NCBI GenBank assembly: GCA_965222115.1
Contig: CBDCTJ010000007.1
Span: 1,696,001 to 1,760,000, forward strand
Length of the DNA: 64,000 bases
Direction of reading: 5' to 3'
DNA from: Planctomycetota bacterium
GTDB taxonomy: Bacteria > Planctomycetota > PLA2 > JAEUHO01
Shown here: positions 3,536 through 44,255 of the stretch, in pieces
Numbering within the stretch: the first letter of the stretch is position 1
How the letters are laid out: each line of letters starts with the position of its first letter
Made by a program: the position numbers and the translations under genes
The notes under the pieces: model-generated
Told to the model about the DNA's origin: nothing
The model's database searches: none
Seen by the model: the letters and a program-made list of their open reading frames with translations, nothing else

Positions 3536-4612
3536 TTAGCGGTCGTCGGCCTGAAATGCCAACTGACCGCATGCCGCGTCGATGTCTTCACCTCGTTGTG
3601 TGCGCAGCGTTACCGAGACTCCGTCTTCGCGCAAGTCGCGCGCGAAGGCATCGCACACCTGTCGACTGGGCGCCTCCAGGTCGGGACGATGGGACACCGG
3701 ATTGAAGGGAATCAGATTCACATGGATATGGCGACCACGAATCCGTCGCGCGAGATCGCGGGCGTGGTGCGGTGCGTCATTTATGCCTGCAATCAATACG
3801 TATTCCACGGTGGCGTCGCGCCCCGTGCGGCGGGCGTAGCGCGCGGCGGCGTCGATCAGACCCTTTACACGACCGGATGGTGAGCCGGGCACCAACGCCG
3901 CGCGCGTATCGTCATCGGGGGCGTGCAGCGACACGGCGATATGCACGCCGAGGTCGCGATCCGCAAGTCGATCGATGCGAACGGGTGTGCTGGCGGCCGA
4001 GACCGTGATGCGTCGCGGCGAGAAGTTCAACCCCTTCTCGTGCGTCCAAAGTGCGATGGCGCAGGCGAGGTTTTCAAGGTTGAGTAGTGGCTCGCCCATA
4101 CCCATCATGACGATGTTGGTGGGTCGCGTCTTTAGGTGACGCTGGACATGGAGTAGCGGTTCTACGATTTCGGACACAGTCAAATTGCGAATCAGCCCTT
4201 TGACGCCGGACGCGCAAAACACGCATCGAATGGGGCAGCCAACTTGCGATGAGATACACACCGTGTTGCGCTTGCCTTCAGGAATGAGCACGGCCTCCAC
4301 ACGTTGCCCGTCGGCAAGCGTGAATAGGAATTTGGTCGTCCCATCTTTGGATTCTTGCACTTGGGTCAATGCAGTTGCTGGAGGCAGCACTTCGCGGCTC
4401 AATGTTTCGCGAAACGCAAGCGGCAGCGTGGTGATTTCGTTTGGATGCAACGCACCGTGTCGGTGAACGGCCTCGAAAACTTGCCCCGCGCGAAAACGAG
4501 GTTGGCCCAGTCGCGTGACGAGCTCCGTCAGGGCACCGAGTGAGAGGCCTGCCAAGCTTTCGGAGGGAGGCAATGCCGCCTTGGTATCGGGCGCTGTTGG
4601 CTTGTTTGACAC
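3536..4612 (-). CDS. rlmN: 23S rRNA/tRNA m2A radical-SAM methyltransferase
   Basis: CISSQVGCPIRCVFC (CxxxCxxC), MGMGEP, C-terminal IDAACGQL. Confidence 0.95.
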   Translation of the reverse strand: MSNKPTAPDTKAALPPSESLAGLSLGALTELVTRLGQPRFRAGQVFEAVHRHGALHPNEITTLPLAFRETLSREVLPPATALTQVQESKDGTTKFLFTLADGQRVEAVLIPEGKRNTVCISSQVGCPIRCVFCASGVKGLIRNLTVSEIVEPLLHVQRHLKTRPTNIVMMGMGEPLLNLENLACAIALWTHEKGLNFSPRRITVSAASTPVRIDRLADRDLGVHIAVSLHAPDDDTRAALVPGSPSGRVKGLIDAAARYARRTGRDATVEYVLIAGINDAPHHARDLARRIRGRHIHVNLIPFNPVSHRPDLEAPSRQVCDAFARDLREDGVSVTLRTQRGEDIDAACGQLAFQADDR

Positions 4613-4627
4613 GGGCGTTGACTCGAC

Positions 4628-5944
4628 TTACGAGCCGGTCTTGCGACGAGACGAAATGCGCTTGACGCGTTCCTTACCTTCGACGGCTTCACGCGTAACG
4701 CGGAAATGGGTGCCGGGCGGGCACTCGGGCAAGTCAAACATCGTTTCCAACAAGAGATCTTCGAGTATGGAACGCAGGGCGCGCACGCCGGTGTCGCGTG
4801 TCTGGGCCTGCTCGGCGATGAGCAGCAACGCGTCGTCGTCAAACTCAATGCTCGCGTCTTCGAATGAAAACATTTGCTCGTATTGCTTGATGAGTGCATT
4901 CTTGGGTTCGCGCAACACACGCACAAGGTCGGCACGGGTGAGCGGCTCAAGCGTGGTGAGCACCGGCAGGCGACCCACAAACTCGGGAATCATGCCAAAC
5001 TCGATCAAGTCGTGGGGCTCGGCATGTTTCAAGAGGCGCGCGCGCTCTTGGGCCTCGCGTTCTTGGTTCTCGACCACGGTGCCGCCGCGGCCAAAGCCAA
5101 TCAGGCTGGTACCCATGCGCTTGGCCACGATGTCTTCCAAGCCGGAAAACGCACCGCCACAGATGAACAGAATGTTGAGCGTGTTGAGTTGGATGTACTG
5201 CTGCTCGGGATGTTTGCGACCGCCTTGCGGAGGGACGTTGGCTACCGTCCCTTCCATAATCTTGAGCAGTGCTTGCTGCACGCCTTCGCCACTCACGTCG
5301 CGTGTGATGGAAGGATTCTGCGACGTGCGATTGATCTTGTCGATTTCGTCGATGTAGATAATGCCGTATTCAGCGCGCTCGCGATTGAAGTCGGTGGCCT
5401 GCAAGAGCTTGAGGAGAATGTTCTCGACGTCTTCGCCGACGTAGCCGGCTTCGGTCAACGTGGTGGCGTCGGCAATGGCGAACGGCACATCGAGAATGCG
5501 CGCGAGCGTGCGTGCAAGCAGTGTCTTGCCACTGCCGGTGGGTCCCACCATCAAGATGTTGGACTTATCGAGTTCAATGTCGGTGGACTCGGAGCTTAAC
5601 GCTCGACGGTAGTGGTTATAGACCGCAACGGCGAGCGTCTTCTTCGCGCGATCTTGGCCGATCACGTATTCATCGAGGTGTTCTAAGATTTCGCGCGGCT
5701 TCTTGAGATCGGCTTCGCTCCATGGAAGCGAGGAAGGTCCCGTGCCACCCGCAGCGCGTTTGCCCGAACGTGGCGACGGCGAGCGGCCATCGCGCTTCAT
5801 TTCTTCAATGAGGATGGTGTTGCAGAGTTCTACGCACTCATTGCAGATGTTGATCCCGGGCGGACCGGCAATCAGGCTCTCGACGTGGTTGCGGCCTTTG
5901 CCACAAAACGTACACTTTTCAATGGAACCTCGACGCGAGGTCAT
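4628..5944 (-). CDS. clpX: ATP-dependent Clp protease ATP-binding subunit ClpX
   Basis: C4 zinc finger (CTFC...CNEC), Walker [34 protein letters not shown] loop. ATG 5944 has a GGAG RBS. Confidence 0.98.
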
Positions 5945-6012
5945 GGGCGACTCCAAGCACGGTACTCTGCGCCCGCGTGGCCGTCCTTCTCAAATGAAGG
6001 CGCGCAGCGAAA

Positions 6013-6032
6013 GCCCGACGGTCCTAGTCTAG
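6013..6032 (+). repeat. Left copy of a 20-bp imperfect direct repeat bounding the kinase/ankyrin cassette
   Basis: GCCCGACGGTCCTAGTCTAG matches 15079-15098 (GCCCGTCGAGCATAGTCTAG) at 16/20, including an identical TAGTCTAG. Confidence 0.55.
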
Positions 6033-6329
6033 CCGATCACGACGGTCGGGGAACCCCGCACTTCGGGCTTCTCCGTTGGCTCTGTTTGTCCCATTTCTCG
6101 GTCGTCCGTTCGATTGCGAGCGTTGATTCCCGTGCGCGGCGTCGATCCGCTGCAGCGTTGCTCTGCGTAAGGCGAATCTCCTTGCCACGGTCTTCGAACC
6201 ATGAGAAGAGGGATATCTCGGGCCTGGGGTCCGCTGGACGGGCGCTGCCGGAGCGCAACGATAGCTTCGTTTTTACGTGTGAGGCGTGGGAAGAAGCGAT
6301 TTAATAGTCCTGAGAGAGGAGGTTCGTTG

Positions 6330-8765
6330 ATGGACACTCCGGAAGACGCGCCCCATCTCGGTTATCTCGGCCAGACCTTTGGAGGCCGTTTTCGAGCGGC
6401 CCGCTCCATCCCTAGCAGGCTTCCCGGGCTCACGTTTCGCGCGCAGGACTTGGAGCTGCGTCGAATGTGCACACTGTTCGTACTGCCGATATCAGAATCG
6501 GCACCTGAGGGAACCGCTCACGAAGTAATCGATGCTGCGCGCACGGGAGATGCAGCGAGACACGCCCACATTGCAGCGACGCTCGCCTTTGGTCTCACCG
6601 ACGGTGGGAATGCGATGTACTACGCCATCGACGTGACAAGGCCGCTCGCATTCCGGTCACTTCTGCTTCGGCAAGACGCCGCACTGATTGGAAGACGCTT
6701 TCCGCGCTGGCTCGCATCTCTCGCTCAATGCCTGCACACGATTCACAAGCGGAAGGCGATTTACGGTACGCTTCGCACGGCGAGCCTGTTCTTTGATACT
6801 CAAGGAACGCCGCAGCTTGCGCCCGTTGGGCTCATGAATTCGATCAGCGAATTGTCGGCGTTAGATCCTCGTTTTCGGTCCCAAGAAATCGGATCAGCGA
6901 CTGAGGCGCCCGAATTGGCCGACGATGGGCGCGCACCAACACCCAAATCGGATCAGTACAGCGTTGCTTCGATTGGCGCGCTGGCTGCTTCAAGGCTCTA
7001 CGACGCAAAGTTCGATGCCAGCAGCGCGCTGGCAAGTCGCCGACACATCCGGCGCGCAACGCCGAAGTGGTTATGGAAGACCGAACTGGGCAAAGTCTTG
7101 GATCGCGCGACTGCATTGCGTCCAGGGCAAAGGTATAGAACGTGTGAACAGTTTGCAGCTGCGATTGACCGTGTGCAGGACGTACCGATCGAAGCGCCAA
7201 GATTCTTGAGTCGTTCCTTGGTTGCCTCAGGTGCAGGCGTGGGCGCAGTCGTTGCTGCGGCAGTGTTCTTCGCCCTTCGCGAAGGGCCAAGTGAGCGGAC
7301 GGAGCCCGAGACGCTTGAAACTCATCAAGAGCCTTTGCTGCGTATCTACCCCGAATCCATGACCAAGGCGGAGGCTGATCGACTCTTGGTCGACAGTGTC
7401 CGATCCTCCGATCCCGCGGGAGTCCGTTGGGCCGCCGACCGTGGTGCCTCGATTGAGGGAAAGACGATTTCCTCTGTGCCTCTCCTACACTTTGCAGCTC
7501 GGCATGGGACGTCGTCGCTCATAAACGCACTCATCGACGTCGGTGCCCCGATAAACGAGACCGCCGATGCCAGTTTGTTGTTTCGTGAAGTGAGATTTAC
7601 TGAGGCAACGCCACTTCATATTGCATCACTTAGCGGGCGTGGAGAGCGCGTGAAGGCGCTGATCGCGAAGGGTGCGGACATGGCGGCGCGTTGTGAGTTT
7701 GTTGATGAAGGGTTTCTGCATGCGGAGGCCGTCCTGGAGGGAAGGGAAGGTCGCTCTGGGTGGTGGGTTCGCGGTGCGCACCCTCTGCACCTGGCCGCAA
7801 TGGCCGACGATTCTTCCGCGCTGCATGCGCTCTTTGAGGCGAGACCGAACATGTCGCCAGACATTCGCTGTGCAGACGATGATACGCCGCTGCATTGCGC
7901 GGCAGCCTATGATCGAGCGGGCAACGCGGGTGCGCTACTGGAGCGCGATGCGTCTCCTCACATCAAGCACGTCGCGGGATTGACACCTATGACGGAGGCG
8001 ATTGCCGCCGGTGCAACTTCTGTACTCGATGTCATGCGGCGTCACCATCCAGACGTTCTGACTCATGCTGACGATGACAGCGATGGAATGTTGCCCATTC
8101 ACTATGCCGTCTACTTAGGAAAGCTTGACGTCGTAAGGTACCTTGTACGAGTTGGAGTAAGCGTAGAGCAGCAAGACGCGCGCATGCACACGCCTCTCGT
8201 GTACGCACTGTGGCACGAGAGGACCGACGTAGCAGATTGGCTGATCACAAGTGGCGCAGACTTGCGAGTGCGTGTGCATGATGGCTGGTCTCTCTTCGAT
8301 GAAGTAGTCAACTACAAGAGCTTGGGGGGGCTTAAGTGGTTGCTAAAACAAGATGTCGAGGATCTTATTGACAGTGCGGCGAGCGATGGTCTAAGGCCCG
8401 TCGAACGGGCGGTTGCGTTGAAACAGTCCCGATTCGTGTCGTTGCTATTGGCTTCGGGCGCCAGTCCAGAGGGTCGGCCCGGCGTTCAGACACCTCCTTT
8501 GCATTGGGCAGCGGCGAACGGGGACGTAGAAACGCTCAAGGTGTTGCTCAAGCACCATCCCGACGTCAACGAGATCGGGGCCGAAGACAAGTCGACGGCT
8601 CTTCATTTTGCCGTGAACAGGGGCATGCTGTCTGCTGTGACGATCCTCCTCCGCGCAGGGGCATCCGTCTCGGTTAAGAACAAGCACGGTACAACACCCA
8701 TGGACATGGCGACCTCCATCGGGCGATTGGACATACTGAGCAAACTAAGAGAGTCTGAAAAATGA
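6330..8765 (+). CDS. Pseudokinase - transmembrane helix - ankyrin-repeat protein
   Basis: AGGAGG RBS before ATG 6330. Kinase-like N-terminus keeps APE and SDQYS but has HRD->YGT, DFG->PVG and no Gly-loop or catalytic Lys. TM AGVGAVVAAAVFFAL. Many ankyrin motifs (TPLHIAS, TPLHCAA, LPIHYAV, PPLHWAA, TALHFAV). Confidence 0.85.
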   Translation: MDTPEDAPHLGYLGQTFGGRFRAARSIPSRLPGLTFRAQDLELRRMCTLFVLPISESAPEGTAHEVIDAARTGDAARHAHIAATLAFGLTDGGNAMYYAIDVTRPLAFRSLLLRQDAALIGRRFPRWLASLAQCLHTIHKRKAIYGTLRTASLFFDTQGTPQLAPVGLMNSISELSALDPRFRSQEIGSATEAPELADDGRAPTPKSDQYSVASIGALAASRLYDAKFDASSALASRRHIRRATPKWLWKTELGKVLDRATALRPGQRYRTCEQFAAAIDRVQDVPIEAPRFLSRSLVASGAGVGAVVAAAVFFALREGPSERTEPETLETHQEPLLRIYPESMTKAEADRLLVDSVRSSDPAGVRWAADRGASIEGKTISSVPLLHFAARHGTSSLINALIDVGAPINETADASLLFREVRFTEATPLHIASLSGRGERVKALIAKGADMAARCEFVDEGFLHAEAVLEGREGRSGWWVRGAHPLHLAAMADDSSALHALFEARPNMSPDIRCADDDTPLHCAAAYDRAGNAGALLERDASPHIKHVAGLTPMTEAIAAGATSVLDVMRRHHPDVLTHADDDSDGMLPIHYAVYLGKLDVVRYLVRVGVSVEQQDARMHTPLVYALWHERTDVADWLITSGADLRVRVHDGWSLFDEVVNYKSLGGLKWLLKQDVEDLIDSAASDGLRPVERAVALKQSRFVSLLLASGASPEGRPGVQTPPLHWAAANGDVETLKVLLKHHPDVNEIGAEDKSTALHFAVNRGMLSAVTILLRAGASVSVKNKHGTTPMDMATSIGRLDILSKLRESEK

Positions 8766-8768
8766 CAT

Positions 8769-11700
8769 TCATCTGCCCCCGACTACAAGCGTTTTCTTGA
8801 TCTTGGCAAGCTGCTGTTTCATTTTGGAGCCGCGCTTGGACGACTCGAAGTCGCTTAGATAGTCGACCGCTGTTCTTGATGCTTTATCTTTGGTACTCGG
8901 ATCGAATCCGTTCTCGATTGCGAACGTCACCACCTCAAGATTCCCTCGTTCGCAGGCTAGATGCAGGAGATTCGCGCCTCCTTTGTTTGTCGCGCGCAAG
9001 TTTGCTCCGCGTCTTAGTAGTGCGGAGATGCACTTGACGCTGTTCGCCTGTAGAAGCGGTGTTTCTCCGAATCTGTCATGAGCATGGACCTTTGCCCCTC
9101 CATCAATTAGCTTGTCGCAGCAGAGGTCCTGGCGATTGAATGCTGCGATATGGAGTGGAGTCTGACCATTGACGTCTGCAGCGTTGGGATCTGCGCCGAG
9201 AGCGAGCAGGTGTGACACGGCCAAGTCCCCCGACCCGTGCTTGTAGGTAAAGGTCATACAGGGCATGAATACTGGAGTGCGACCGAGTGAGTTCGCTAGA
9301 TTGGGGTCGATGCCCCATCTCACGATTTCTCGATATACCTCCAAGTCGGTTGAGTTTTTCGCTGCCCAATGGAGCAAGCTATGATGAGGAAGCGAGGGCC
9401 TCCCCTCGCGGTATATCTGGCGATCTTCGTCTCCTCGTCTAAAGATTGCACGCGCAGCACGAAATCTCTTGGCCAGGATTTCGCCAGTGAGCAGTGCTGC
9501 GTACTCTCGTTGATTGAAGTCCAGTGGATGTCCGCAAGCGAGAAGCTGCTGTAGCACCTTGTTGTCGCCGTGTTCGATGGAGGTCCGTATGATTTCGGTG
9601 GGAATTTCCCCCGAGCCTCCGTCTCGATAGCACCCATTGGGGCCTATCATCAACTCTAACCAGTCAGCACGCAACGTTGCGTTCGGAGTCACCCAGGTGC
9701 TGTGAAGCAATGCCGATCGGATGGGCTCCCAGCTGCGCCTCTTTCCGTTCGGCAGGGATGCACCATGATTCATGAGTGATCTTGCGATACCTGTGTGTCC
9801 GAACAAAAGGGCATCACAAAGCGCGCTCGATTCGTACTGTACGTCGATCAGCTCTTCAACCCGATAACTACCTCCCGGAACAGCGATAAGACGATCGATA
9901 CTGCGAGAAACTTGCTTACCAGAAGTGGCGTTAGGATCCGCGCCGGCTGTGAGCAACTCATCGATAGCCCAAGCGGAGCCTCTAACGCTCGCCACCATGA
10001 GCGCGGTGTCTCCCTCGTTGTCGAAGGCTTCCATGTTGCACTTTTGCGCCAGCAGAAACTTCAATGCCGCGCGACCAATCTCCGCATCTTGGATTAGTGC
10101 AGCCTGTGCAAGTGCGTTCGATCCTGGCGCGGTGCTCCAATGGCGGACTTTGCTGCCTATGGCGTGGCCCGGCAAGCCTCTTCTAGGTGACATGGCCAAG
10201 GGCTTTGAACCAAAGAAGGGTGTGTTTGGGTTCGCGCCGAACTTGATTAGCATGCGAAGACTGTCCAGCACTTCTGCGTCGGGTTGTAACTGATCGAATC
10301 TACGGAGGAAGATGCCGAGTACGGTTGCGCCGCTGGACGTGCGCGCGTTGGTGTCTGCTCCGTGTTTCGCTAGAAGGTGTAGGACTCTGTTTCGCACTAT
10401 GCCGTTACGGATCATTGCGGCGGCGTGAAGTGGAGTGCAGTCCTTTTCTCCTGCCATCGTAAGAAAGTCGAACGACTTTGTCTCTGAGGAGCTTCCTTCC
10501 TGAACTAGCCTCTCAACGGTGGACACAAGACCTAGTCGACACGCCCGATATAGCGGCGTCTGAAGCTTGTAGCAACAGACTTCGCGATATTGGTTTCTGC
10601 CGAACCGCTCCTGCTTGGAAACCAGCATGTTGAAGTGAGACTGCTTACCTGCTCCTGCGTCAAGTATCGTTGCCCACTCATCAGTAGTGCGGGCACAGTA
10701 TATGGCTAGGTCCCAGAGGGTGGGGCCCTTCTCCGGGAGTCCAAGCACGCGAGGATCTGCACTATGATCGAATGAGCGACGAAGCAGCCAGGTCGCCGGC
10801 GGCAAGGTCTCATCAGTCATGCGTGCACCCATTGCCAGGAGTTCTCGCGCGTAGCTCCAATCTCCTTTCAAGAAGGCGTAAGCGATCGCAGGAATTCCCT
10901 GGCCCGAGCGGGCAACAGGATTCAATCTGTGCTGCTCGATTAGCGAGCGTAGTGAAGCTCCCGTCGCATGCGCATATCCAACTGCATTCTCTGTTGAGAG
11001 GTCGTCTGTGTCATCGCTCTTGTCTCGTTTGAGAAGTACGCTCACGACATCGGAGTATCCACGAAGGCGAGCAAAGTCCAGCGGTGTTTCGCCGTGGGCC
11101 ACGGCGCGCCATAGCTCGAAATCAGGATCTGTCTTTCGGCGTCCTGGCACCCTAAGTATAGCCTGAGGGCTTGCGCTCAGCATGGATACTTTACCCTTGC
11201 CGCTTGCGAGCGGGTCAGCCCCTAGCGAAATTAGTTGCTTTGTCTGTTCTACGTCGCCTCTAAGACAAGAAAGGTGCAACGCTGTGAAGCCACCAACTGT
11301 TTGCAGATCGATGTCGCAATGCTTAGAGAGTATGTCAATCGCCCGACGATTGTTTGTAAGCACGGCGTGATGAAGGGGCGACAAGGTCTGAATACCACTT
11401 GAGATAAGCAATATCCGGCGTTCTGCGTTTAGCGACAGTTGGCGCTTGACTCTTGAATCTAGGATGGTCGCGTATTCCGCTACCAATGCCGATTCAGTTA
11501 CGCGATGAGTTGGATCCGCGCCCGCATCAAGCAAGATTTTGATTGTCACATTATTCTTCGCACGCACCGCGCGCGTGAGCGGCGTCATTCCTTGCCAGTC
11601 AATCGGATCCAGCGATGACGGCTTCGCTCTAATCATCGCTCGAAGAAGTCGAGCGTCCTTTGACTCGGCGCAAATGTGTAGTGGGGTACCCGTGTTGTGT

Positions 11701-13727
11701 CCACGGCCATCGTGAAATGCAGGGGCAAGTACGTGTGCCCCCTTTTCAATTAAGTATTTCCCAATTCCCACTGACTGATCTCCTCCGTAGGCCGCATAGT
11801 GCAAGGGTTGCCAGCCGACGCTTCCCTCACGCGAATGAAGTAGCGACTTGTCTTGTCGTAGTAGTTCGGTTGCCACTTGGGTCGAGTTGTTCTGTGCCGC
11901 TACGTGCATTGCGGTCGTACCCCGCTTGTCGTCAACGATTAGTGGCGCGCCTCTCGCTATTGCCCATTTCGCGACCTCTACTTGATCGCCGATCGCGGCG
12001 CCTTGCATGACTGCCTGAAGTGCCTCGCGCGTCGGATCCGTTGGGCTCACCAGTGGCGCTCGCTCGATCATTGCTACACGGCCCAATGACGCTGCGATCG
12101 AGATCGAGTCTTCGTAGGAGTCTGCGCCGTTGTGCCAACGCCGTGGTGAAGTCATCAGACACTTGGCTGCGGACAGTGAGTCGAATACAACGCTCATGGT
12201 GAGTACGGAATGCGACTCGCCTCGAATAGTCGCACTCGAAGACATAGGGTGAGACTTGAGTGCGTCCAGTACCTTCGACAACTTTCTTGTGGCGGCGATA
12301 TGGGGGGGCGCAACTTTCGCGGTACCTTTCGTCACTAGCGCAGAAGTTGGGACTCGCATTGACGCCAAAGCAAATGGGTCTGTGACTCGGTACATCAATA
12401 GAGATACGATTTCTACAGAGGAGGCTGCAGCTGCCAGATGGGCTGAATTTGGCGAGTAGATAATTAGCTTGTCAACGGATACGATACCTTTAGCTCGTGT
12501 ATTGGGGTCGGCGCTATGTCTCAGCAGCAACTTCACGCATGAGGCTGAGTCTACAAGCACCGCGATGTGTAGTGGAGTGAGACCTTGGTCAGTGACCTCG
12601 TGACACTTCGAGTCATTCTCCAGTAGTTCGCGTAGCTTGTTCACGTCACTTGCTGCGCACGCACGATGGGTAGGATTTGATAGTCGATGAAGCTGCGTTC
12701 GTACATCACGCGCGGGATCGATCGGTATAGGCGCCTGTGTTTTCGCCTCACGGTGGATTTCCGGTCTCTCTTGAGCGTCGATCTTACCGATTGATTGGCG
12801 CCGATTGTGAAACAAGGCGATGGCAGTGATTGCTGCAACTCCGAGCAATGCTGCGCTTGCCATCTTCCAGCGTACAGTTGGCGATTTTCTTTGCGACCCC
12901 TTTACATCTGCGTTTGGCCTAGTTGGGTAGAGAGATCGACCGAATTCTAGACATGACCCAAAGCGCCCACTTGGTTCGACCGACAACGCCTTGCCTATCG
13001 CGCGGGATACGGTTCTAGAAACGTTGGTATTGAACTCATGCAGGGCTTGAGGGGGCCTCGTCGACTTGGAGGCCATAATCTCGATGTAGCTGCGGCCTTT
13101 GTACGGTTTCTCACCGCCTAGCGCCTCGTAGACAGTCATTGCGAGGCCATACTGGTCTGTTGCACCCGAGAAGCTCTTGGCACTTCCCGCTTGTTCTGGC
13201 GCCATGTAGATGGGACTGCCGGCGTTTCCAATGTTCCCGCTGTCGGTAGTCTTACGGAGCGCCAAGCCAAAGTCGGCGAGTACAGGCGAACCATGTTCAT
13301 CAAACAGGATGTTGGCGGGCTTTACATCGCGATGCACGATTCCGCGTTCATGGAGATAATCCAATGCACGTGCGACGGGTTCAAGCCAGACGCGCGTTTG
13401 CGCAAGACTTTGAGTCTTTTGTGCTTTGAGGCGATCTTCAAGACTGCCTCCCGGCAAGTATTCCAAGATGTAATATGGAATATCTTCATGCAGCCCTCGA
13501 CCGAGGATGCGAACGATATTTGGATGGCGAATGCGGCGTAGCTCGTCAATCTCACGCACCAGTCGATACGCATTGGCTTTCGATCGGCCGGCGCGCACAC
13601 GTGCCAGCTTGGCGACGACGAGTCGGCCCGTACTGATCTCTTCGGCGAGCCATGCCGCACCCATGCCGCCTTGGCCTAGAAGTGTTTGTAGCTCATACCG
13701 CTCGTTAAGTATCGATCCTGTCTCCAT
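8769..13727 (-). CDS. Ser/Thr protein kinase - TM - large ankyrin-repeat region (1652 aa)
   Basis: GQGGMG, VVAK, HRDVKPAN, DFG and MAPE all intact. TM ASAALLGVAAITAIALF. Numerous TPLH/TALH ankyrin repeats through to the C-terminus. Confidence 0.92.
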   Translation of the reverse strand: METGSILNERYELQTLLGQGGMGAAWLAEEISTGRLVVAKLARVRAGRSKANAYRLVREIDELRRIRHPNIVRILGRGLHEDIPYYILEYLPGGSLEDRLKAQKTQSLAQTRVWLEPVARALDYLHERGIVHRDVKPANILFDEHGSPVLADFGLALRKTTDSGNIGNAGSPIYMAPEQAGSAKSFSGATDQYGLAMTVYEALGGEKPYKGRSYIEIMASKSTRPPQALHEFNTNVSRTVSRAIGKALSVEPSGRFGSCLEFGRSLYPTRPNADVKGSQRKSPTVRWKMASAALLGVAAITAIALFHNRRQSIGKIDAQERPEIHREAKTQAPIPIDPARDVRTQLHRLSNPTHRACAASDVNKLRELLENDSKCHEVTDQGLTPLHIAVLVDSASCVKLLLRHSADPNTRAKGIVSVDKLIIYSPNSAHLAAAASSVEIVSLLMYRVTDPFALASMRVPTSALVTKGTAKVAPPHIAATRKLSKVLDALKSHPMSSSATIRGESHSVLTMSVVFDSLSAAKCLMTSPRRWHNGADSYEDSISIAASLGRVAMIERAPLVSPTDPTREALQAVMQGAAIGDQVEVAKWAIARGAPLIVDDKRGTTAMHVAAQNNSTQVATELLRQDKSLLHSREGSVGWQPLHYAAYGGDQSVGIGKYLIEKGAHVLAPAFHDGRGHNTGTPLHICAESKDARLLRAMIRAKPSSLDPIDWQGMTPLTRAVRAKNNVTIKILLDAGADPTHRVTESALVAEYATILDSRVKRQLSLNAERRILLISSGIQTLSPLHHAVLTNNRRAIDILSKHCDIDLQTVGGFTALHLSCLRGDVEQTKQLISLGADPLASGKGKVSMLSASPQAILRVPGRRKTDPDFELWRAVAHGETPLDFARLRGYSDVVSVLLKRDKSDDTDDLSTENAVGYAHATGASLRSLIEQHRLNPVARSGQGIPAIAYAFLKGDWSYARELLAMGARMTDETLPPATWLLRRSFDHSADPRVLGLPEKGPTLWDLAIYCARTTDEWATILDAGAGKQSHFNMLVSKQERFGRNQYREVCCYKLQTPLYRACRLGLVSTVERLVQEGSSSETKSFDFLTMAGEKDCTPLHAAAMIRNGIVRNRVLHLLAKHGADTNARTSSGATVLGIFLRRFDQLQPDAEVLDSLRMLIKFGANPNTPFFGSKPLAMSPRRGLPGHAIGSKVRHWSTAPGSNALAQAALIQDAEIGRAALKFLLAQKCNMEAFDNEGDTALMVASVRGSAWAIDELLTAGADPNATSGKQVSRSIDRLIAVPGGSYRVEELIDVQYESSALCDALLFGHTGIARSLMNHGASLPNGKRRSWEPIRSALLHSTWVTPNATLRADWLELMIGPNGCYRDGGSGEIPTEIIRTSIEHGDNKVLQQLLACGHPLDFNQREYAALLTGEILAKRFRAARAIFRRGDEDRQIYREGRPSLPHHSLLHWAAKNSTDLEVYREIVRWGIDPNLANSLGRTPVFMPCMTFTYKHGSGDLAVSHLLALGADPNAADVNGQTPLHIAAFNRQDLCCDKLIDGGAKVHAHDRFGETPLLQANSVKCISALLRRGANLRATNKGGANLLHLACERGNLEVVTFAIENGFDPSTKDKASRTAVDYLSDFESSKRGSKMKQQLAKIKKTLVVGGR

Positions 13728-13820
13728 CGAAGCATGCTACTGAGGCCCACAGAATCGCCAACATCTGGACACAGTCGCGTATGCCACACCGTGCTTTCCA
13801 GTGAGTCCTCGGTTGCCTTA

Positions 13821-15002
13821 CTAGCGACGTGTGGAGGTGTTTTCGATGAGCGAGTACATCGCCATTGCAGTTGGTGGGCGGCGCGATGGATCTGGGTCTA
13901 ACGACTGATCGATTGCATTTGCGAGTGCTTCAGGAACGTCGGCGTTTCTCATCTGAACTGGCACGTAGACCGCTCGCATGAGGTCGCTCCAGTTCGTTTC
14001 GCCATCGCCCTCGTAATGCCATGATGCTGTGGCGGCGTAATACAGCGTTGCACCTGCGCCGAAGATGTCCGTCGCCACGGAGACTTTGCGTGCATCCCGC
14101 AGTTGTTCCGGCGGCATGAACTTGGGGGTGCCCTTGATGGAGTCACTGGTTGTGAGACACGGTTGACCTGCGTCGCGAAGACTTTTTGCCAAACCAAAGT
14201 CGGCCAATTTAACACGGTATCTGCCATCAGACTTCTCAACGAGAACGTTCTTTGGCTTGATGTCCCTATGAATGACCCCCTGATTATGTGCATAGCCAAT
14301 GGCATGAAGCAGATCGCGAGCAATTGAAGTGACCTCACTGGACTTCATCGGGCCGTGTTGATTCACGTGCGCCTGCAGGTCGAGGCCCTGAATCCACTCA
14401 AATGCAATCCAAAGCTCCTCGCCGCGATCGGACGCACCAAGTGTGCGAACAATGTGTGGATGACGGAGGGACGCTGCGATTTCGATCTCGCGCATGAAAT
14501 GAGCCACCGCCTTGCTGCTTTCATTGGAGGAAAGTGGCAAGATTTTCACTGCAGCGATCTTCCCCGTATCTCGCTGTAGTGCGAGATGCACTTCACCACC
14601 AGTACCGCTTGAGATGCATCGGAGACACTCGTAGTCTCGTAACGAAGCACCGATCGACTCAAGGACCCTTTCGCCGAACTCCTCCTCATCTCGCGAATTG
14701 GCGATAATGGCTTCCATTGACGTGTGTCCGATATGGAGCGTGTCCCCTGTGCAAAGGTCCGCCCTGGCAACCCGCTTCCCGTTTACGTGTACGCCGTTGC
14801 TGCTTCCTAGGTCGCGCACTGAAACTTTGTTCGCACCCATCTCAACGAGGGCGTGAAGCCTGGACATGTACGGATCGGTCGGCACCTGCGAAGATTGGTC
14901 TGCTTCTCCGCCGCGACCGATGACGAAGCTCTGATATCCCTCGTACACAAAATCACGGCCAACGTCGGGCCCCTTCAGAACTCGAAACTTCACTTGCAGC
15001 AC
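13821..15002 (-). CDS. FHA domain + Ser/Thr protein kinase
   Basis: FHA motifs IGR, MSRLHA, DLGSSNGVHVNG. Kinase motifs AAVK, HRDIKPKN, DFG, MPPE. No TM. GTG start with GGAG RBS. Confidence 0.92.
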   Translation of the reverse strand: MLQVKFRVLKGPDVGRDFVYEGYQSFVIGRGGEADQSSQVPTDPYMSRLHALVEMGANKVSVRDLGSSNGVHVNGKRVARADLCTGDTLHIGHTSMEAIIANSRDEEEFGERVLESIGASLRDYECLRCISSGTGGEVHLALQRDTGKIAAVKILPLSSNESSKAVAHFMREIEIAASLRHPHIVRTLGASDRGEELWIAFEWIQGLDLQAHVNQHGPMKSSEVTSIARDLLHAIGYAHNQGVIHRDIKPKNVLVEKSDGRYRVKLADFGLAKSLRDAGQPCLTTSDSIKGTPKFMPPEQLRDARKVSVATDIFGAGATLYYAATASWHYEGDGETNWSDLMRAVYVPVQMRNADVPEALANAIDQSLDPDPSRRPPTAMAMYSLIENTSTRR

Positions 15003-15078
15003 AAGATACTCCGCTTTGACCGGAAAACTTCCTACGCGGCATTGCGACTCAGAGCCGCTTCAGCGCTCTACGTCATCG

Positions 15079-15098
15079 GCCCGTCGAGCATAGTCTAG
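15079..15098 (+). repeat. Right copy of the 20-bp imperfect direct repeat
   Basis: GCCCGTCGAGCATAGTCTAG, 49 bp beyond the clpP stop; partner at 6013-6032. Confidence 0.55.
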
Positions 15099-15147
15099 TC
15101 AGATCCGCAAGTTTGAATCCCTCAAGTCATCGGGTCCAGCGGCGTGG

Positions 15148-15801
15148 CTACTTCTTCTCTTTCTCATCCTTCGCATCGAGATGCTTCTTGGATTCGACGA
15201 CTTCGTCGAGGAGGCCGTAGTCTTTGGCCTCGGTGGCGGACATGTACTTGTCGCGGTCGGTGTCGTGTTCGATGTCCTTCATAGGCTTGCCGGTGTGGCG
15301 AGCAAGGATTTCGTTGAGGATGCGACGGGCGTAGAGAATTTCTTCGGCCTGGATTTCGATGTCGGCCGCGGTGCCTTGGGCGCCGCCCCAGGGTTGGTGA
15401 ATCATCACGCGTGCGTTGGGCAGGGCGAAGCGCTTGCCGGGTGTGCCAGCCGCAAGCAGGATGGCCGCCATGCTGGCCGCGCTACCGATGCACACGGTTT
15501 CCACGGGGCACGAGATGTACTGCAGCGTGTCGTAGACGGCGAGTCCCGCGGTGATGCTGCCGCCAGGGCTGTTGATGTAGAGATGGACGTCGCGATTTCG
15601 ATCGCTCTTCTCAAGCACGAGCAACTGGCCAATCAAAAGGTTCGCGACCGTGTCGTTGATGGGCGTGCCGAGATAGACAATGCGGTCTTCTAGCAGGCGG
15701 CTCCACACATCGTAATGGCGTTCGCCACGCCCGGTACGCTCGATAATGGTGGGGTTGGGAATGTAGCCCTGAAAATTCTGCGGGGTCTTAACGTCGCTCA
15801 T
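15148..15801 (-). CDS. clpP: ATP-dependent Clp protease proteolytic subunit
   Basis: [21 protein letters not shown], catalytic Ser in AASMA, MIHQP. Confidence 0.98.
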
Positions 15802-15828
15802 GGAATGGGGGGTCCTCAGTAGGGGGGC

Positions 15829-17292
15829 CTACTTCTTCTTGGATGCTTTCTTCTTTGCCGCCTTCTTCTTGGCGGTCTTCTTTTTGGACGCCTTCTTCTT
15901 CGAAGCTTTCTTCGACGAGTCTTTCTTCTTCTGGGCAGCGCCCCCCTTAGCGTCGTCGGAGGGGGAGGCCTCTTCAAGGAGGCTCTCATCTTCGACCACG
16001 GCAGCCTTGCTGCGGATGAACTCGGCTACCTTGCGCTCCCGAATCTGCATCTTGATCTCGTGAATGCGCTCACCGCTTTGAAGCGACTGGATCACCTGCT
16101 CGACGGGGACGCCGTACGCCTTGGCCATGTCGACCGCGGCGCCGTGTACGTCGGCCTGCGTCGCTTCGATGGATTCGGCATCGGCAATACGTTCCAGCAG
16201 AAAGAAACGCTTGTAGTCGAGTTCGATGGCACTCTTTGCGTCGCCTCGTTCCGCGTCGATCGTCTTTTCAATCTCGTCTTCCGGTTTCTCATCGAGTTGC
16301 ATACGCATACGCTTGCGTGAGGCCCAGCCTTCGAGTTCGTTGGAGACAAAATCCTCGGGCAACGACATCTCGATGCCCTCGACGAGTTCCTCCACAAGCT
16401 TGTCGGCGGCATAGCGGTCCCGCCCGCGTTCGCTGCTGCGTCGAATCTGCTTCTTCATGTCGCTGCGAAGTTCGTCTTCGTCGTCGTAGTCGAGCTCCTT
16501 GAGGAAGGCCTCGTCGATTTCGGGTAAGACGAAGCGTTTGATCTTCTTGAGCTTGACCTCAAGCGTCATCTCAATCCCGCGCAACTCCTCACGCTTGTCG
16601 TCGGCCGGAACCTCGACCGTGTCGGTTGCGACGGTGCCAACCGGTTTCCCTTCGAGTTGATCGTCCAGCGCTTCGACGACGTAGCCCGCAAGCACACCGC
16701 GTCCCAGCGAGTAAAAGACGCCGTCGTCGCGATCTAAGACGCTTTCGCCCTCCATGGCCTTGTAGTCAATGACCAGTACGTCCTTCTCCTGCGCCGTGGC
16801 CTTCTCGTCTTGGACGTCTTCGAGCTTGGCCAGGCGTTCGCGAAGGCCCGAAATGGCGTCGTCAACGTCGTCGTCCGTAACCTTGATGGGCGGAACGCGA
16901 ACTTCGAGCCCCTCGTATTTCGGCGTTTCAAATTCGGGCTTGGTGACAACTTCAAACTCGAATGAAAATGGCTTGTTTCGCTCTAAGGGAAACGAATCGA
17001 CATCAAGGTTGGGAGCACGCAGCGGCTCGATCTTTTTGGATTCGACAAGCTCTTCGAAAATCTCTTGAATCAACTCGGCGCGGACTTCTTCGCCTAGCTT
17101 CTTGCCAAAGCGTTTTTCGATGATTTGGCGTGGCGCGTGTCCGGGCCGAAATCCCGGCAAAGCGATGTTGTCGTTGATCTCGCCGAATTTCTTGTTGAAG
17201 GCCTCTTCGATGCGCTCTTCGCTCAGCTTGATCGACACCTTCTTCACGCAGGGCGCCTTGGTCTCTACCTGAACGTCCATGGGAGTCTCCAT
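15829..17292 (-). CDS. tig: Trigger factor with Lys-rich C-terminal tail
   Basis: Ribosome-binding signature PGFRPGHAP, FKBP-like middle domain, position upstream of clpP. Start could be 17280. Confidence 0.93.
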   Translation of the reverse strand: METPMDVQVETKAPCVKKVSIKLSEERIEEAFNKKFGEINDNIALPGFRPGHAPRQIIEKRFGKKLGEEVRAELIQEIFEELVESKKIEPLRAPNLDVDSFPLERNKPFSFEFEVVTKPEFETPKYEGLEVRVPPIKVTDDDVDDAISGLRERLAKLEDVQDEKATAQEKDVLVIDYKAMEGESVLDRDDGVFYSLGRGVLAGYVVEALDDQLEGKPVGTVATDTVEVPADDKREELRGIEMTLEVKLKKIKRFVLPEIDEAFLKELDYDDEDELRSDMKKQIRRSSERGRDRYAADKLVEELVEGIEMSLPEDFVSNELEGWASRKRMRMQLDEKPEDEIEKTIDAERGDAKSAIELDYKRFFLLERIADAESIEATQADVHGAAVDMAKAYGVPVEQVIQSLQSGERIHEIKMQIRERKVAEFIRSKAAVVEDESLLEEASPSDDAKGGAAQKKKDSSKKASKKKASKKKTAKKKAAKKKASKKK

Positions 17293-17696
17293 CCGCCGCG
17301 CAGGACCGTCCGCCCGGGTGCGGCGGCCAGAAGGTAGCCGCTCATTGGGAGGGGAACGAAGGAAGGCCCGGCGTCAACGGGCCTCACAGCCCCATAAATC
17401 TGCCTTTCCCCTGGTTCCCGTGACTTTCCTGGTGGTTCCGCTCGGTGATGGATCTAGAATCAGGGGGACCGCTGTGCGCTACCAGCGCAGCCGCTCGTCT
17501 CTCTATTGGCTTTGGTCTGGCCTACGTCTCGACCTGTCCCCATTGGCGGACGCGTTCAGCGACGAAGCAAAGATCGCCCCTCACTCCGGGCGGCCCCACT
17601 CGTGGCGTCGCCCAAGTTCTGGCGGTAGCGCAATGGGAATGGCAAGGACCCCTTCAAGGTTCTTGGGCAAGGTTTTTGGGGGCAAGGCGAAGGCAC

Positions 17697-19190
17697 GTGC
17701 CTCGCACTGAGAAGGACCCCGCAGCCGGAGACGCGCAAGGACAGCAATATCCAGGAAAAGAACCATTGAGAAATAGAAGAAACTCACACTCCGGACGCGG
17801 CGGTAGTCGTAGGCGTCGGCCTACGCGAGGTCGTGGCACGGCCCGCGGTGGATCATCGCGTGGCCCTTCAAGAGGAGGACGATCACCGCGTGGCGGTGGT
17901 CGCGGTGGCGGACGGTCTCGCGGTCCCAACCGTGACCAGCCCGCATACGACGAATCGGGTTTGCCGTACGGCGTCCTGCTTGCCGAGCCCACACCACCAC
18001 TTCCACCGCCTGACTTCAAGTTCACTGAACCCACGATGGAAGAGATGTATGCCTTTGGCCTACTCGACTTGCATCGCGATGGACATGGCTACTTACGTTC
18101 ACCCGCCACCATGTACGTCCCGTCGGATGACGACGTGCATGTGTCGCGCGATTTGGTGGAGCAGTACGGACTTCGCGACGGCGTGACGATTGATGGCATT
18201 GCCGGTCGTGCGCGCCGCCCGGGCTTGAGTCCACCGCTTGAAGAACTGGTGTCGGTATGCGGCGTTGCTCCGCATCTCTATCACAAGACGCGCAAGTGGG
18301 ATCAGCTCACCGTGATCGATCCCGAGCGTCGTTTGAATCTCACCGAAGGCACCGACGACATCACGCTGCGTATTATTGACATGCTTGCGCCGATTGGCTT
18401 TGGCCAGCGCGGACTGCTTGTGTCGCCGCCGCGTGCCGGTAAGACGATGATCCTGCAGAAGCTCGCGCAAGCGGTGGAACGCAATCACCCTGAAGCCTAT
18501 TTGATGATTCTGTTGGTCGATGAGCGACCGGAAGAGGCCACTGCATTCCAACGCGCCACCAACGGCGAGGTTGTGGTGAGCACCAACGACGAAACGCCCG
18601 AGAATCACGTCCGCGTGACAGAAATGGCATTGAAGAAGGCCAAGCGTCTCGTTGAGACCGGCAAGGATGTTGTGATCTTGATGGACAGCCTCACACGCCT
18701 GGGTCGTGCCTACAACCTGCTGCAACGCAGTGGGGGGCGCACACTTTCGGGTGGTATGGACAGCCGCAGCTTGGAAAAGCCCAAGGCGTTCTTTGGCGGT
18801 GCGCGCAATATCGAGGAAGGCGGTTCACTCACCATCGTGGCCACGGCCTTGATCGAAACCAACTCGCGCATGGATCAGGTGATCTTTGAGGAGTTCAAAG
18901 GCACGGGCAACATGGAGTTGGTGCTCAGCCGCGCACTGGCCGAGCAACGCATCTGGCCTGCGATCGACGTCAATATGTCGGGTACGCGTAAGGAAGAGAA
19001 GCTGTTGTCGCAGTTGTTCCTTGAGAAGGTCTACATGCTTCGTCGTGTGCTTCAACGCGTGCGTCCGATCGATGCCATGCAACTATTGATCGAGCGCATG
19101 GAAGCCACGGGCGATAACAAAGCCTTCCTCGATCTCCTGTCCCAGCCGGGTCGGAGGAATGAGGATGACACGTTTGATTACGCGACGTAG
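17697..19190 (+). CDS. rho: Transcription termination factor Rho with Arg/Gly-rich N-terminal extension
   Basis: GYLR RNA-binding domain, [43 protein letters not shown]. Start uncertain (GTG 17697 or TTG 17766). Confidence 0.95.
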
Positions 19191-35530: not shown

Positions 35531-35614
35531 ACCAGCAGGCTCCGTCAAATAAATCGTGCGCGTCGTACGTCGCGCCTGGGTGGGGCGATGAACAAAATCG
35601 CGTCGGGCGTGTCC

Positions 35615-35659
35615 CATTGTGAGTCGGCACAATGTGAGTCGGCCCAATGTGAGTCGGTA
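35615..35659. repeat. 3 x 15-bp tandem repeat in the fusA / TPR-gene divergent intergenic region
   Basis: CATTGTGAGTCGGCA-CAATGTGAGTCGGCC-CAATGTGAGTCGGTA. Confidence 0.85.
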
Positions 35660-35705
35660 CGTGGTGCGCCGCGCCGAAGCCAAACGAACGTGGCGGAAAC
35701 TGAAT

Positions 35706-35729
35706 CGCAATTGCTTGATTGCAATTGCG
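35706..35729. promoter_or_regulatory. Inverted repeat, possible operator
   Basis: CGCAATTGC-ttgatt-GCAATTGCG; AT-rich dyad between divergent genes. Confidence 0.4.
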
Positions 35730-35904
35730 GGGTCGTCGCCGCTACCGTCCGGCCACGACCGGCATACACGGGGCGCTGTGTAGCAGGCAACCGAGCCCGC
35801 TTCACTCTCTTTTTGGGCACGAGTCGTGAAATCGGGCCATAGCGACGTGTTCGTTCGCGTCTGTGTTGTCCCCCCGAAGTGCGACGATTCGCGCCGGAGG
35901 GCCC

Positions 35905-40728: not shown

Positions 40729-41058
40729 CCCTATCCCATTGCCCATTTATTTCGGCGTCCGAAGCGTCTCCCAGCACATCGGAGTTTAGCCTGGGCGGCC
40801 TGCCTCGCGCTGTGAGCGAAGATGCACTGAAACGTGTGCGAATCGCGCCGACTGAGTGCCGGGCTCGATGAGCCGAGTCTCGATTCAGGGAGCGGCGGGC
40901 TTCAGCGATGGACTCGCAAAGGGCGATTTGGAGGCAATTAGGCGACGTGAATTGGCCCCGAGACCCCTTCTCATTCGTGGAGGTACACGCTTTGCGCCCT
41001 ATCCTGCTGGTCCAGCATGGTCATGGCGTCACGACGGCGTCGTTTCAGGAGGCTCCGT

Positions 41059-43935: not shown

Positions 43936-44147
43936 CCCGCGCGGAAGTCTTGGAGCGCTCCTGGAGGGCGTTTGTTAGGTTGTTCTTGTTGTGCGAAGCC
44001 GCACAAGTGCCCGCGCGACTCGAATCGGTCTCGTCGCGCGGGATCGCGCACCTCCACGAACGGAGCTTTGGGGTCGAAGGACCGCGTCTGGGCAAGAATA
44101 TGGGGCTTTCCGCCTGAGTCGACTCCAGGCGAAGGGAGCTTCTCCAC

Positions 44148-44156
44148 TGCTATACT
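44148..44156 (+). promoter_or_regulatory. Putative extended -10 promoter for paralogue 3
   Basis: TGcTATACT about 100 bp upstream of the start. Confidence 0.35.
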
Positions 44157-44255
44157 CCTGGTACGCCCTTTGCGGTTTCGCATGCGTATCACCTTCTCAT
44201 TCGCGCCGATCCCACGCTTTCGATCCGGCCAGCGATGAGGCATTCGGAGTCATTC

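Follow-up and report, generated by a model that had tools for sequence, protein, structure and literature searches.

A receptor-type ankyrin kinase, a pseudokinase and an FHA-kinase inserted between clpP and clpX in a Planctomycetota bacterium: a possible variant of the planctomycete receptor-kinase theme

The window analysed here, a stretch of 64,000 nucleotides from an uncultured Planctomycetota bacterium (assembly GCA_965222115.1, contig CBDCTJ010000007.1), carries three genes, denoted A, B and C, between clpP and clpX. Gene A (6330..8765, forward strand) encodes 811 aa, gene B (8769..13727, reverse strand) encodes 1652 aa, and gene C (13821..15002, reverse strand) encodes 393 aa from a GTG start which is consistent with its homologues. 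A and B are convergent, with their stop codons 3 bp apart, and a 93 bp spacer separates the stop of C from the start of B. Upstream of the insert is clpP (15148..15801, reverse strand; Pfam CLP_protease, 269.7 bits), with tig beyond it (15829-17292), and downstream is clpX (4628..5956, reverse strand; Pfam zf-C4_ClpX and AAA_2), which is divergent from A.

The clpP and clpX genes form a widely conserved pair and adjoin in 21 of 23 relatives. Here the pair is broken by the island, clpX now lying 9194 bp from clpP, with A, B and C filling the gap of approximately 9.2 kb. The block is an accessory, lineage-specific insert. No orthologue of A or B is on record from a close relative with 95% identical ClpX, and the 90% cluster of C contains C alone. 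As the island splits clpP from clpX, clpX must have its own transcription, and C and B may be transcribed from the tig-clpP transcript. No PP2C phosphatase is encoded in or near the locus, the two matches in the genome both being distant.

Gene B encodes an active-type Hanks kinase. The kinase domain (residues 11-257; 12957..13697, reverse strand) scores 149.8 bits against Pkinase (PF00069; cut-off 31.7), and the catalytic motifs are all intact. A single membrane span is predicted at residues 289-307 (12807..12863, reverse strand; Kyte-Doolittle 1.94), followed by a giant ankyrin array at residues 354-1613 (8889..12668, reverse strand), in which a repeat HMM gave 19 matches, 14 of them strong. 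Ank_2 of Pfam reaches 264 bits over nine stretches of this array (cut-off 27.3), and six gaps of 64-149 aa with no recognisable repeat interrupt it. A span shortly past the kinase domain was also seen in four other kinases checked from the same clade (R1, below), and neighbours with WD40 or FGE domains have the same order of kinase and span.

Gene A repeats this architecture with a catalytically dead kinase-fold domain. Its start at 6330 follows the public gene call P0004, while starting from an upstream ATG (6201) would lengthen the protein to 854 aa. The N-terminal domain (6330..7220, forward strand) has no Pfam match to Pkinase, scoring 14.7 bits when searched alone (cut-off 31.7). It does match PknA of Mycobacterium tuberculosis over residues 12-282 (phmmer against the PDB, E 8e-7) and the kinase domain of B (BLASTP, E 7e-11, 24% identity). 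An AF2 model of the domain has a pLDDT of 82.2 and a pTM of 0.83, from an alignment of 26 rows, all kinases, which biases it toward a kinase fold; its best Foldseek match is again PknA (4x3f, E 2.2e-14, TM 0.72-0.77). The sequence matches and the model show that the domain has a kinase fold. This fold has been kept while the catalytic residues have been lost. The motif table shows a G-loop of PSRLPG, the VAIK lysine replaced by F, HRD by YGT, the catalytic asparagine by S and DFG by PVG, whereas APE, the alpha-F aspartate and the alpha-H/I arginine are retained. With all four catalytic residues missing, including the lysine and the aspartates of HRD and DFG, A is classed as a pseudokinase rather than a kinase.

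The only segment of A with a hydropathy of at least 1.4 (19-residue window) lies at residues 341-359 in the 854-aa numbering (2.16; 7221..7277, forward strand) and is predicted to be a single membrane span. It is followed by ankyrin repeats (7485..8678, forward strand; 11 matches, nine strong, to a self-built repeat HMM), with Ank_2 (PF12796 and relatives) at 146 bits against the cut-off of 27.3. An earlier note on this DNA had described A and B as a convergent pair sharing one architecture (kinase fold, single span, ankyrin repeats), one member active and the other dead, and the reading frames, Pfam matches, predicted spans and motifs bear this out. The order of N-terminal kinase, single predicted span and C-terminal repeat array matches the planctomycete receptor-type Ser/Thr kinase, the topology of A and B being predicted from one hydropathy scale (Kyte-Doolittle). 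Of the 15 giant ankyrin reading frames of the phylum, seven have a hydrophobic, signal-like start, which is a lead toward extracytoplasmic repeat arrays.

FHA domains bind phospho-threonine, through conserved arginine, serine, histidine and asparagine residues. The earlier note had read gene C as a soluble FHA-kinase with its phospho-threonine-binding motifs intact, and this holds: the FHA domain (PF00498; residues 27-92; 14727..14924, reverse strand) scores 50.3 bits (cut-off 20.7), GR (residues 29-30), SxxH (47-50) and NG are present in the translation, and no hydrophobic span of at least 1.4 (Kyte-Doolittle, 19-residue window) was found. G29, R30 and H50 are invariant among six FHA-kinases. 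The kinase domain (residues 124-381; 13860..14633, reverse strand; Pkinase 171.9 bits, cut-off 31.7) has intact catalytic motifs and a degenerate G-loop (SSGTGG).

A tree built from 68 kinase domains, with both a careful and a quick search, was used to examine how these domains are related. Two clades, which were given their names with the quick tree already in view, contain the three genes. R1 (nine rows, support 98/95) groups A and B with membrane kinases from this planctomycete family, and F (nine rows, support 100/98) holds C with other soluble FHA-kinases. No branch in the tree is longer than that of A, at 2.2 changes per column. Its closest matches within its own genome are R1 members, and constraining A and B as sisters was not rejected (p-AU 0.92). 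The best non-self match to A among 1.84 billion representatives has 23% identity (E 6e-14), and a place for A in any conserved pseudokinase family is therefore unlikely.

Apart from C, clade F has eight members, seven of them with enough context to be compared. A larger kinase gene, mostly encoding a membrane-spanning protein, is found within 8 kb in all seven and directly adjacent in four, although these counts are not independent, as kin share neighbourhoods by descent and some of the loci (G000:C7:1693053 with G013:C40) are orthologous. The larger kinase is 17 bp away at G000:C1 and 13 bp away at G020:C14; it is adjacent and divergent at G003:C111, and the F member at G013:C21 lies divergently beside a kinase-TM-WD40 gene. 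Two further full-length FHA-kinases outside the tree show the same habit, one adjoining a 1165-aa kinase (G010:C649) and one a single reading frame from a 1255-aa kinase (G020:C10). In genome G000 every one of the four F members has another kinase within 8 kb (17, 94, 2332 and 7630 bp), and 12 of 41 non-F kinases do (median distance 38.5 kb). The partner belongs to R1 at four of the seven loci, and F members also pair with non-R1 kinases, so the pairing is not exclusive to one clade. In G000, no other kinase is encoded within two reading frames of two of the R1 members (680 and 857 aa). Gene order varies as well, C preceding B here and the FHA-kinase following the receptor in G000:C1, G020:C14 and G038. 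A limited literature search found no paper on the pairing of FHA-kinases with larger kinases.

These neighbourhoods support the idea of an FHA-kinase that works with a membrane kinase. A conserved three-part system, however, is not supported: A is an orphan, the trio sits in a lineage-specific insert at clpP-clpX, and the co-occurrence check found no second trio of kinase, pseudokinase and FHA-kinase with ankyrin repeats. The recurrent unit in related bacteria is the membrane kinase and the FHA-kinase only. The other kinases in comparable loci are all catalytically intact (20 of 20, motif table), which places the pseudokinase outside the recurrent pattern. In a phylum-level relative (G038:C135), a 2735-aa kinase-TM-WD40 gene is followed 31 bp on by an FHA-kinase, in convergent orientation with a 1353-aa sister kinase-TM-WD40 gene. 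This is the same three-gene logic with WD40 as the repeat. The reading of the locus as a new system is thus supported only in part: the architecture and the contrast of an active and a dead kinase hold, and the logic of B with C recurs, but the trio is not conserved. Separately, four relatives encode tandem dual-kinase fusions related in sequence, which hint at paired action of kinase domains of this kind.

The genome is rich in kinases, with 45 Pkinase matches above the cut-off. Among 3643 crude reading frames 46 are kinases, and seven of these directly adjoin another kinase (random mean 1.1, sd 1.45); A-B-C is the sole run of three. This general clustering, with the unconserved trio and the orphan status and long branch of A, is what would be seen if the three genes were functionally unrelated neighbours brought together by kinase expansion, A being a decaying, non-functional copy. 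We regard this as rather unlikely, given the larger kinases near C-clade members at every other locus with context, the frame of A open over 811 codons with well-formed ankyrin repeats, and the confident model of its kinase fold, in which structural residues are kept and catalytic ones lost.

An accessory island in a housekeeping operon, with no orthologue of A or B on record from the nearest relative, could also be an anti-phage or abortive-infection Ser/Thr kinase module of the PD-T4-6 or Stk2 kind. The PD-T4-6 models of PADLOC match B and C (best E 8.5e-61 and 7.3e-62, respectively) over the kinase domain only and with no cut-off set by PADLOC, and the ankyrin part of A matches PDC-M72A. 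However, all of these matches span only generic kinase or ankyrin domains, and the NCBIfam defence models all fall below their cut-offs (MADS6 132.6 bits against 460, PglW 79 against 990). The island kinases belong to clades common to ordinary family paralogues, no further defence genes adjoin the block, and a periplasmic sensor array would be ill-suited to sensing an intracellular phage. A defence role is accordingly improbable in our judgement.

We hold it to be just as improbable that the ankyrin proteins act, as eukaryote-like proteins, on a eukaryotic host or prey rather than in endogenous signalling. Ankyrin repeats are rare in this genome, being found in A, B and one other reading frame, and none turned up in the two family members sampled. 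The GC3 values of A, B and C fall between the 3rd and 10th percentiles genome-wide, and Legionella Ank effector models give a weak, sub-threshold resemblance. Nevertheless, a protein that begins with a kinase and continues with one span has the topology of a receptor and not of an effector, no secretion-system genes lie near the island, the kinase domains of A and B belong to a native planctomycete clade, and the codon-usage distance of the three genes is unremarkable.

Mycobacterial PknB, which has a PASTA ectodomain and a PP2C phosphatase in its operon, provides a precedent for FHA docking: the FHA domain of GarA docks on a phospho-threonine of the receptor kinase, and such FHA proteins serve as substrates or adaptors without being kinases. 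The kinase folds of A and B match PknA and PknB best, but here the FHA protein is itself a kinase and the locus has no PP2C. In eukaryotes, the FHA domain of Chk2/Rad53 brings the kinase to an upstream partner that has been phosphorylated, and in HER2/HER3 a dead receptor is paired with an active one. The likeness to A-B-C lies in the logic alone, and homology does not extend past the domains in common.

Nor is the composition unprecedented. According to the available portion of a published account, Planctomycetota membrane kinases have undergone a lineage-specific expansion, with FHA among their associated domains, and include kinases predicted to have the kinase domain in the cytoplasm and repeat arrays in the periplasm (PMC11032199). 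Like A and B, the WD40 and TPR kinases described in that portion have an N-terminal Pkinase domain, a span and long C-terminal tandem repeats that are predicted to be periplasmic; the present pair differs in having ankyrin repeats and one dead copy, and gene pairs with FHA-kinases are not described in the same portion (PMC11032199). Kinase and ankyrin fusions in bacteria are on record too. ESM Atlas clusters with 77 and 174 members, mostly from Cyanobacteriota, and with 83 members, mostly from Acidobacteriota, share the fusion seen in B but are shorter (614-923 aa), and a metagenomic protein of 2348 aa (P0057), whose kinase domain is 43% identical to that of B, adds a Glucodextran_B domain to kinase and ankyrin repeats. 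An FHA domain N-terminal to a kinase is likewise an architecture listed in the accessible text of a bacterial STK atlas (bioRxiv 10.1101/2025.01.12.632604), which also gives seven conserved families of bacterial pseudokinases (CP1, DYD, ActPs1-3, DLHK and GLW). A resembles the pseudokinases of that text in its Hanks-type fold without the VAIK lysine, HRD aspartate and DFG aspartate, but those families are conserved and A is a singleton with no relative above 23% identity. In Myxococcus xanthus, the membrane kinase Pkn8 phosphorylates Pkn14, a soluble kinase whose own substrate is a cytoplasmic target (PMC6213207); the available part of that report assigns no FHA domain to Pkn14, and the cascade has no pseudokinase or repeat ectodomain. 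For A-B-C we infer a cascade.

We propose that A-B-C varies the planctomycete receptor-kinase theme in a way specific to its lineage, as a two-tier relay from B to C with the degenerate paralogue A as a probable modulator, and consider the chances of this about even. B would be a receptor-type Hanks kinase with a cytoplasmic kinase domain, one span and approximately 1340 residues of periplasmic ankyrin repeats that may bind ligands. It would autophosphorylate first. C, as the soluble partner of B, would then dock through its FHA domain on a phospho-threonine in the activation loop or juxtamembrane region of B, become phosphorylated, and pass the signal to cytoplasmic targets. For the predicted phosphorylation of C by B, the observation at hand is that the two clades recur as neighbours. 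A, a dead paralogue from the kinase clade of B with the same predicted topology and its own ankyrin ectodomain, would have no output itself and most likely modulates B through pairing, in either an allosteric or a decoy role. A bolder reading, to which we give a low probability, is that receptor kinases with adjacent cognate FHA-kinases are dedicated relays throughout the family, and that here a dead receptor paralogue heterodimerises with the active one. If true, this would be a bacterial counterpart of the eukaryotic receptor kinase and pseudokinase pairs, and its relay would be an FHA-kinase resembling Chk2.

To our knowledge few bacterial kinase-to-kinase cascades have been described, Pkn8-Pkn14 being one. 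If the proposed relay from B to C is real, the locus would pack bacterial kinase-to-kinase signalling into 9 kb, where a receptor kinase, an FHA-kinase and a pseudokinase are encoded together, and would offer a natural experiment on the role of a bacterial pseudokinase next to its active paralogue. Most worth pursuing is the recurrent pairing of an FHA-kinase with a larger kinase, because it is conserved and testable with purified cytoplasmic domains.

Positions 6201-15002 of the window are occupied by three long open reading frames in an ORF scan. Gene A (public gene call from the ATG at 6330, end at 8765, + strand; 811 aa, database protein P0004) is convergent with gene B (8769-13727, - strand; 1652 aa), with 3 bp between their stop codons, and gene C (13821-15002; 393 aa) shares the strand of B and lies 93 bp upstream of it. 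This is the arrangement described in an earlier note, of two convergent genes and an FHA-kinase upstream of, and co-oriented with, the active kinase. Pfam matches in B are Pkinase (149.8 bits, residues 11-257) and Ank_2 (264 bits), and in C they are FHA (50.3 bits, 27-92) and Pkinase (171.9 bits, 124-381); the sole matches in A are to ankyrin (Ank_2, 146 bits). With an HMM for the repeats, trained on the A and B proteins, 11 ankyrin repeats are counted in A and 19 in B (residues 354-1613), the latter array including six stretches of 64-149 aa with no recognisable repeat. A single-sequence AF2 model of the A ectodomain was poor (pLDDT 47.1) and was discarded.

By Kyte-Doolittle hydropathy, one hydrophobic 19-mer directly follows the kinase-like domain of A (mean 2.16) and the kinase domain of B (mean 1.94), no hydrophobic span is found in C, and related receptor kinases have a span at the equivalent position. 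As a cytoplasmic kinase is followed by a single span, the ankyrin arrays of A and B are predicted, from hydropathy alone, to lie outside the cytoplasm. The shared plan of kinase fold, single TM and ankyrin repeats which had been proposed for A and B holds for the domains and their order, with the TM being a Kyte-Doolittle prediction only. Exported ankyrin arrays seem to be usual in this phylum, given that 7 of 15 giant ankyrin ORFs fetched from it (L129-L143) begin with a signal-like hydrophobic segment. Ankyrin-only giants of 824-2280 aa, as seen at these loci, are common in phylum genomes, and in one genome (G043) a kinase-TM gene adjoins a giant ankyrin gene. Ankyrin occurs in 87 of the 151 phylum genomes at E 1e-10 or better, and is rare in the source genome (G000), being present in A, B and one further ORF.

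The N-terminal 297 residues of A score 14.7 bits against Pfam Pkinase, under the cut-off of 31.7, and the domain aligns over its full length to Mycobacterium tuberculosis PknA (E 8e-7) and to the kinase domain of B (E 7e-11, 24% identity). An AF2 model from 26 sequences has a pLDDT of 82.2 and a pTM of 0.83, although the input alignment was made up of kinases and so favours a kinase fold; the closest solved structures are PknA, Stk1 and PknB (top E 2.2e-14, TM 0.72-0.77). A is a dead kinase. Of 21 kinase domains compared by motif, A is the only one in which F replaces the VAIK Lys, YGT replaces HRD, S the catalytic Asn and PVG the DFG motif, which bears out the claim that one of the two convergent genes is dead and the other catalytically complete. 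The APE motif, the alpha-F Asp and the alpha-H/I Arg are retained in A, in columns which are invariant in the 26-row alignment. Retention of structural residues alongside loss of catalytic ones argues for a fold that has been maintained rather than one that is merely decaying, in a protein that has no orthologues in which selection could be measured. A was also considered as a recent copy of B, and this was ruled out because local matches between the ankyrin parts show only 23-35% identity and the kinase parts share 24%.

According to the earlier note, a conserved trio in unrelated loci would speak for a system; by these searches the trio is not conserved. The pseudokinase domain of A matched only itself in a word-indexed search of 5.8 billion clusters, its best match in an exhaustive scan of 1.84 billion representatives was at E 6e-14 and 23% identity, and in 40 relatives the best (E 1e-10, 24-28% identity) were ordinary kinases; no second trio with ankyrin was found. 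The kinase domain of B had no match above 43% identity, and only one of the 120 matches listed for it also carries ankyrin (P0057, 2348 aa, with a Glucodextran_B domain). The kinase plus ankyrin architecture itself is not unheard of, as three bacterial clusters in the ESM Atlas (77, 174 and 83 members) combine Pkinase with Ank. Among the 15 largest ankyrin ORFs of the 150 matches listed, out of 659 in 151 phylum genomes, none has the kinase/single-span/ankyrin plan of B; one is a kinase with 15 spans and ankyrin, and in another case a kinase gene lies beside a separate ankyrin gene. An alignment search with the FHA-kinase returned mostly ordinary kinases, with the FHA part fully covered at one of 80 loci (a Pirellulaceae MAG), but was keyed on the generic HRD motif and so is no measure of co-occurrence.

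What does recur is an FHA-kinase beside or near a receptor kinase. Homologues of C in the family are full length at 33-40% identity. A maximum-likelihood tree was built by a quick and then a careful search from 68 kinase domains, all 46 from G000 and 22 from the neighbourhoods of C homologues. It contains a clade R1 (support 98/95, 9 rows), in which B and a long-branched A group with membrane kinases of varied ectodomains, and a clade F (100/98, 9 rows) of C and other soluble FHA-kinases; both groups were named only once the quick tree had been seen. Eight F members lie outside the A-B-C locus, one of them on a 5-kb contig, leaving seven with context. A larger kinase gene is found within 8 kb at 7/7 of these, and is an R1 member at 4/7, although some F loci are orthologous and the counts thus overstate independence. 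The F member directly adjoins an 802-aa kinase at G000:C1 (17 bp) and a 1657-aa kinase at G020:C14 (13 bp), and is divergent from an adjoining 932-aa kinase at G003:C111 and a 1569-aa kinase-TM-WD40 protein at G013:C21; at G013:C40, G000:C7:1693053 and G000:C7:2059020 the larger kinase is one or two genes away. Full-length FHA-kinase matches beyond the tree (G010:C649 and G020:C10) have the same pattern; the FHA-kinase loci of G032 and G028 were left out of this evaluation. In two order-level relatives (L123 6714-9175, G027; L124 6401-9090, G034) there are two tandem FHA-kinase genes, rather than an FHA-kinase and a receptor kinase.

Within G000 (4.55 Mb; 45 Pkinase matches above cut-off; kinases in 46 of 3643 crude ORFs) a kinase lies within 8 kb of 4/4 F members compared with 12/41 other kinases, and five of those 12 are themselves partners of F members. 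Seven G000 kinases directly adjoin another kinase, where 2000 shuffles gave 1.1 on average (sd 1.45, max 10), and A-B-C is the sole run of three adjoining kinases. Directly upstream of the window (L128, G000:C7:1680000-1696000) is a second kinase/FHA neighbourhood, with an R1-clade kinase-FGE-sulfatase (1011 aa) and an F-clade FHA-kinase (480 aa) divergent from a protein of 1646 aa that combines Pyr_redox_2, four FHA, cNMP_binding and Fer4 domains; a HEAT-repeat protein follows. A layout parallel to that of A-B-C occurs in a phylum-level relative (G038:C135), with WD40 replacing ankyrin, all 3/3 kinases intact and the two receptors sisters. At this locus (L027, G038:C135:6000-25999, 3709-17456) the FHA-kinase lies 31 bp downstream of a 2735-aa kinase-TM-WD40 gene, and the two together are convergent with the 1353-aa sister kinase-TM-WD40. 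Taken together, these comparisons indicate that the receptor-kinase/FHA-kinase pair is the conserved element and the pseudokinase paralogue A the singular one.

Within G000, it is R1 members that A matches best. Forcing A and B to be sisters is not rejected (p-AU 0.92), and the constrained tree outscores the quick free tree by 25 log-likelihood units, which may just reflect a better search. With A inside R1, its sisterhood with B not rejected and ankyrin near-absent elsewhere in G000, the simplest reading, tentative on account of long-branch effects, is that one kinase-span-ankyrin ancestor was duplicated long ago and one copy then lost catalysis.

The trio lies between clpP (15148-15801) and clpX (4628-5956), with tig upstream, so that over 4628-17292 the conserved tig-clpP-clpX order is interrupted by a 9.2-kb insert. 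Both clpP and clpX are present in 23 of 24 relatives searched; they are about 40-330 bp apart on one contig in 21/23 and on separate contigs in 2/23, compared with a gap of 9194 bp in G000, which indicates that the A-B-C block was inserted between an ancestrally paired clpP and clpX. A search of the insert found neither direct nor inverted repeats at its ends, and no tRNA gene or integrase; its borders can be placed only to the clpP stop on one side and the clpX start on the other, and the intergenic DNA of six relatives fails to align. C and then B start 145 bp past clpP on the shared strand. clpX is divergent from A across a 373-bp spacer and, being cut off from clpP, would need its own promoter; when 4500-17500 was scanned for promoters and terminators, sites were no commoner than in shuffles. 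The GC3 of A, B and C is at the 9.5th, 3.2nd and 9.1st percentiles of G000 ORFs, and their codon-usage distance is ordinary for the genome. The ClpX relatives that carry a name (74-78% identity) come from Planctomycetota MAGs. In the nearest metagenomic relative ClpX is 95% identical and ClpP falls in the same 90% cluster, both being reported from a 120,845-bp contig. Clustered at 90%, A, B and C are joined by no protein from outside G000, and the protein databases searched have no A or B homologues between about 45% and 100% identity. The island therefore appears to be accessory and absent from the nearest sampled relative, judged from protein records rather than from the sequence of that contig.

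Other genes in the window include a 581-aa Rho with a long N-terminal part (17445-19190, +), an 850-aa EF-G enlarged in its G domain and by ~160 residues at the N-terminus (33395-35947, -), three tandem paralogues with Big_5 at the N-terminus (960-972 aa; 37846-47120), and a protein of 1583 aa combining DUF4011, AAA_11/AAA_12 helicase, REase_MTES_1575 and DUF3320 domains (49419-54170, -). A further Hanks kinase (449 aa) heads a co-directional run at 56239-61100, with a CxxCxxCC protein and a VIT-VWA protein after it.

FHA domains are phospho-threonine readers, and FHA proteins are recruited by PknB. A ligand or partner on the periplasmic array of B might increase its autophosphorylation, whereupon the FHA domain of C could dock at a phospho-threonine of B, and C, once phosphorylated by B, would act on cytoplasmic targets. 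A may pair with B, as activator or decoy. Four relatives encode membrane proteins of 941-999 aa with two tandem intact R1-like kinase domains (L144, G015:C17; L147, G001:C105; L148, G021:C61; L149, G012:C61), the G012:C61 copy being cut at the contig end and the other three complete with C-terminal hydrophobic spans; this hints that R1-like domains may act in pairs. No PP2C phosphatase was found near A-B-C, and defence libraries gave only generic kinase or ankyrin matches to the three proteins. Precedents are the Pkn8 to Pkn14 cascade, for kinase relay (PMC6213207), and planctomycete kinases predicted to have periplasmic repeat arrays (PMC11032199). A limited literature search found no description of the trio or of an FHA-kinase/receptor-kinase pairing.

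Overall, what the earlier note observed is confirmed, and its interpretation survives in part, as a recurrent receptor-kinase/FHA-kinase pair and not as a conserved trio. A-B-C varies a documented planctomycete theme in a lineage-specific way, and its receptor-kinase/FHA-kinase pair is conserved and open to testing.
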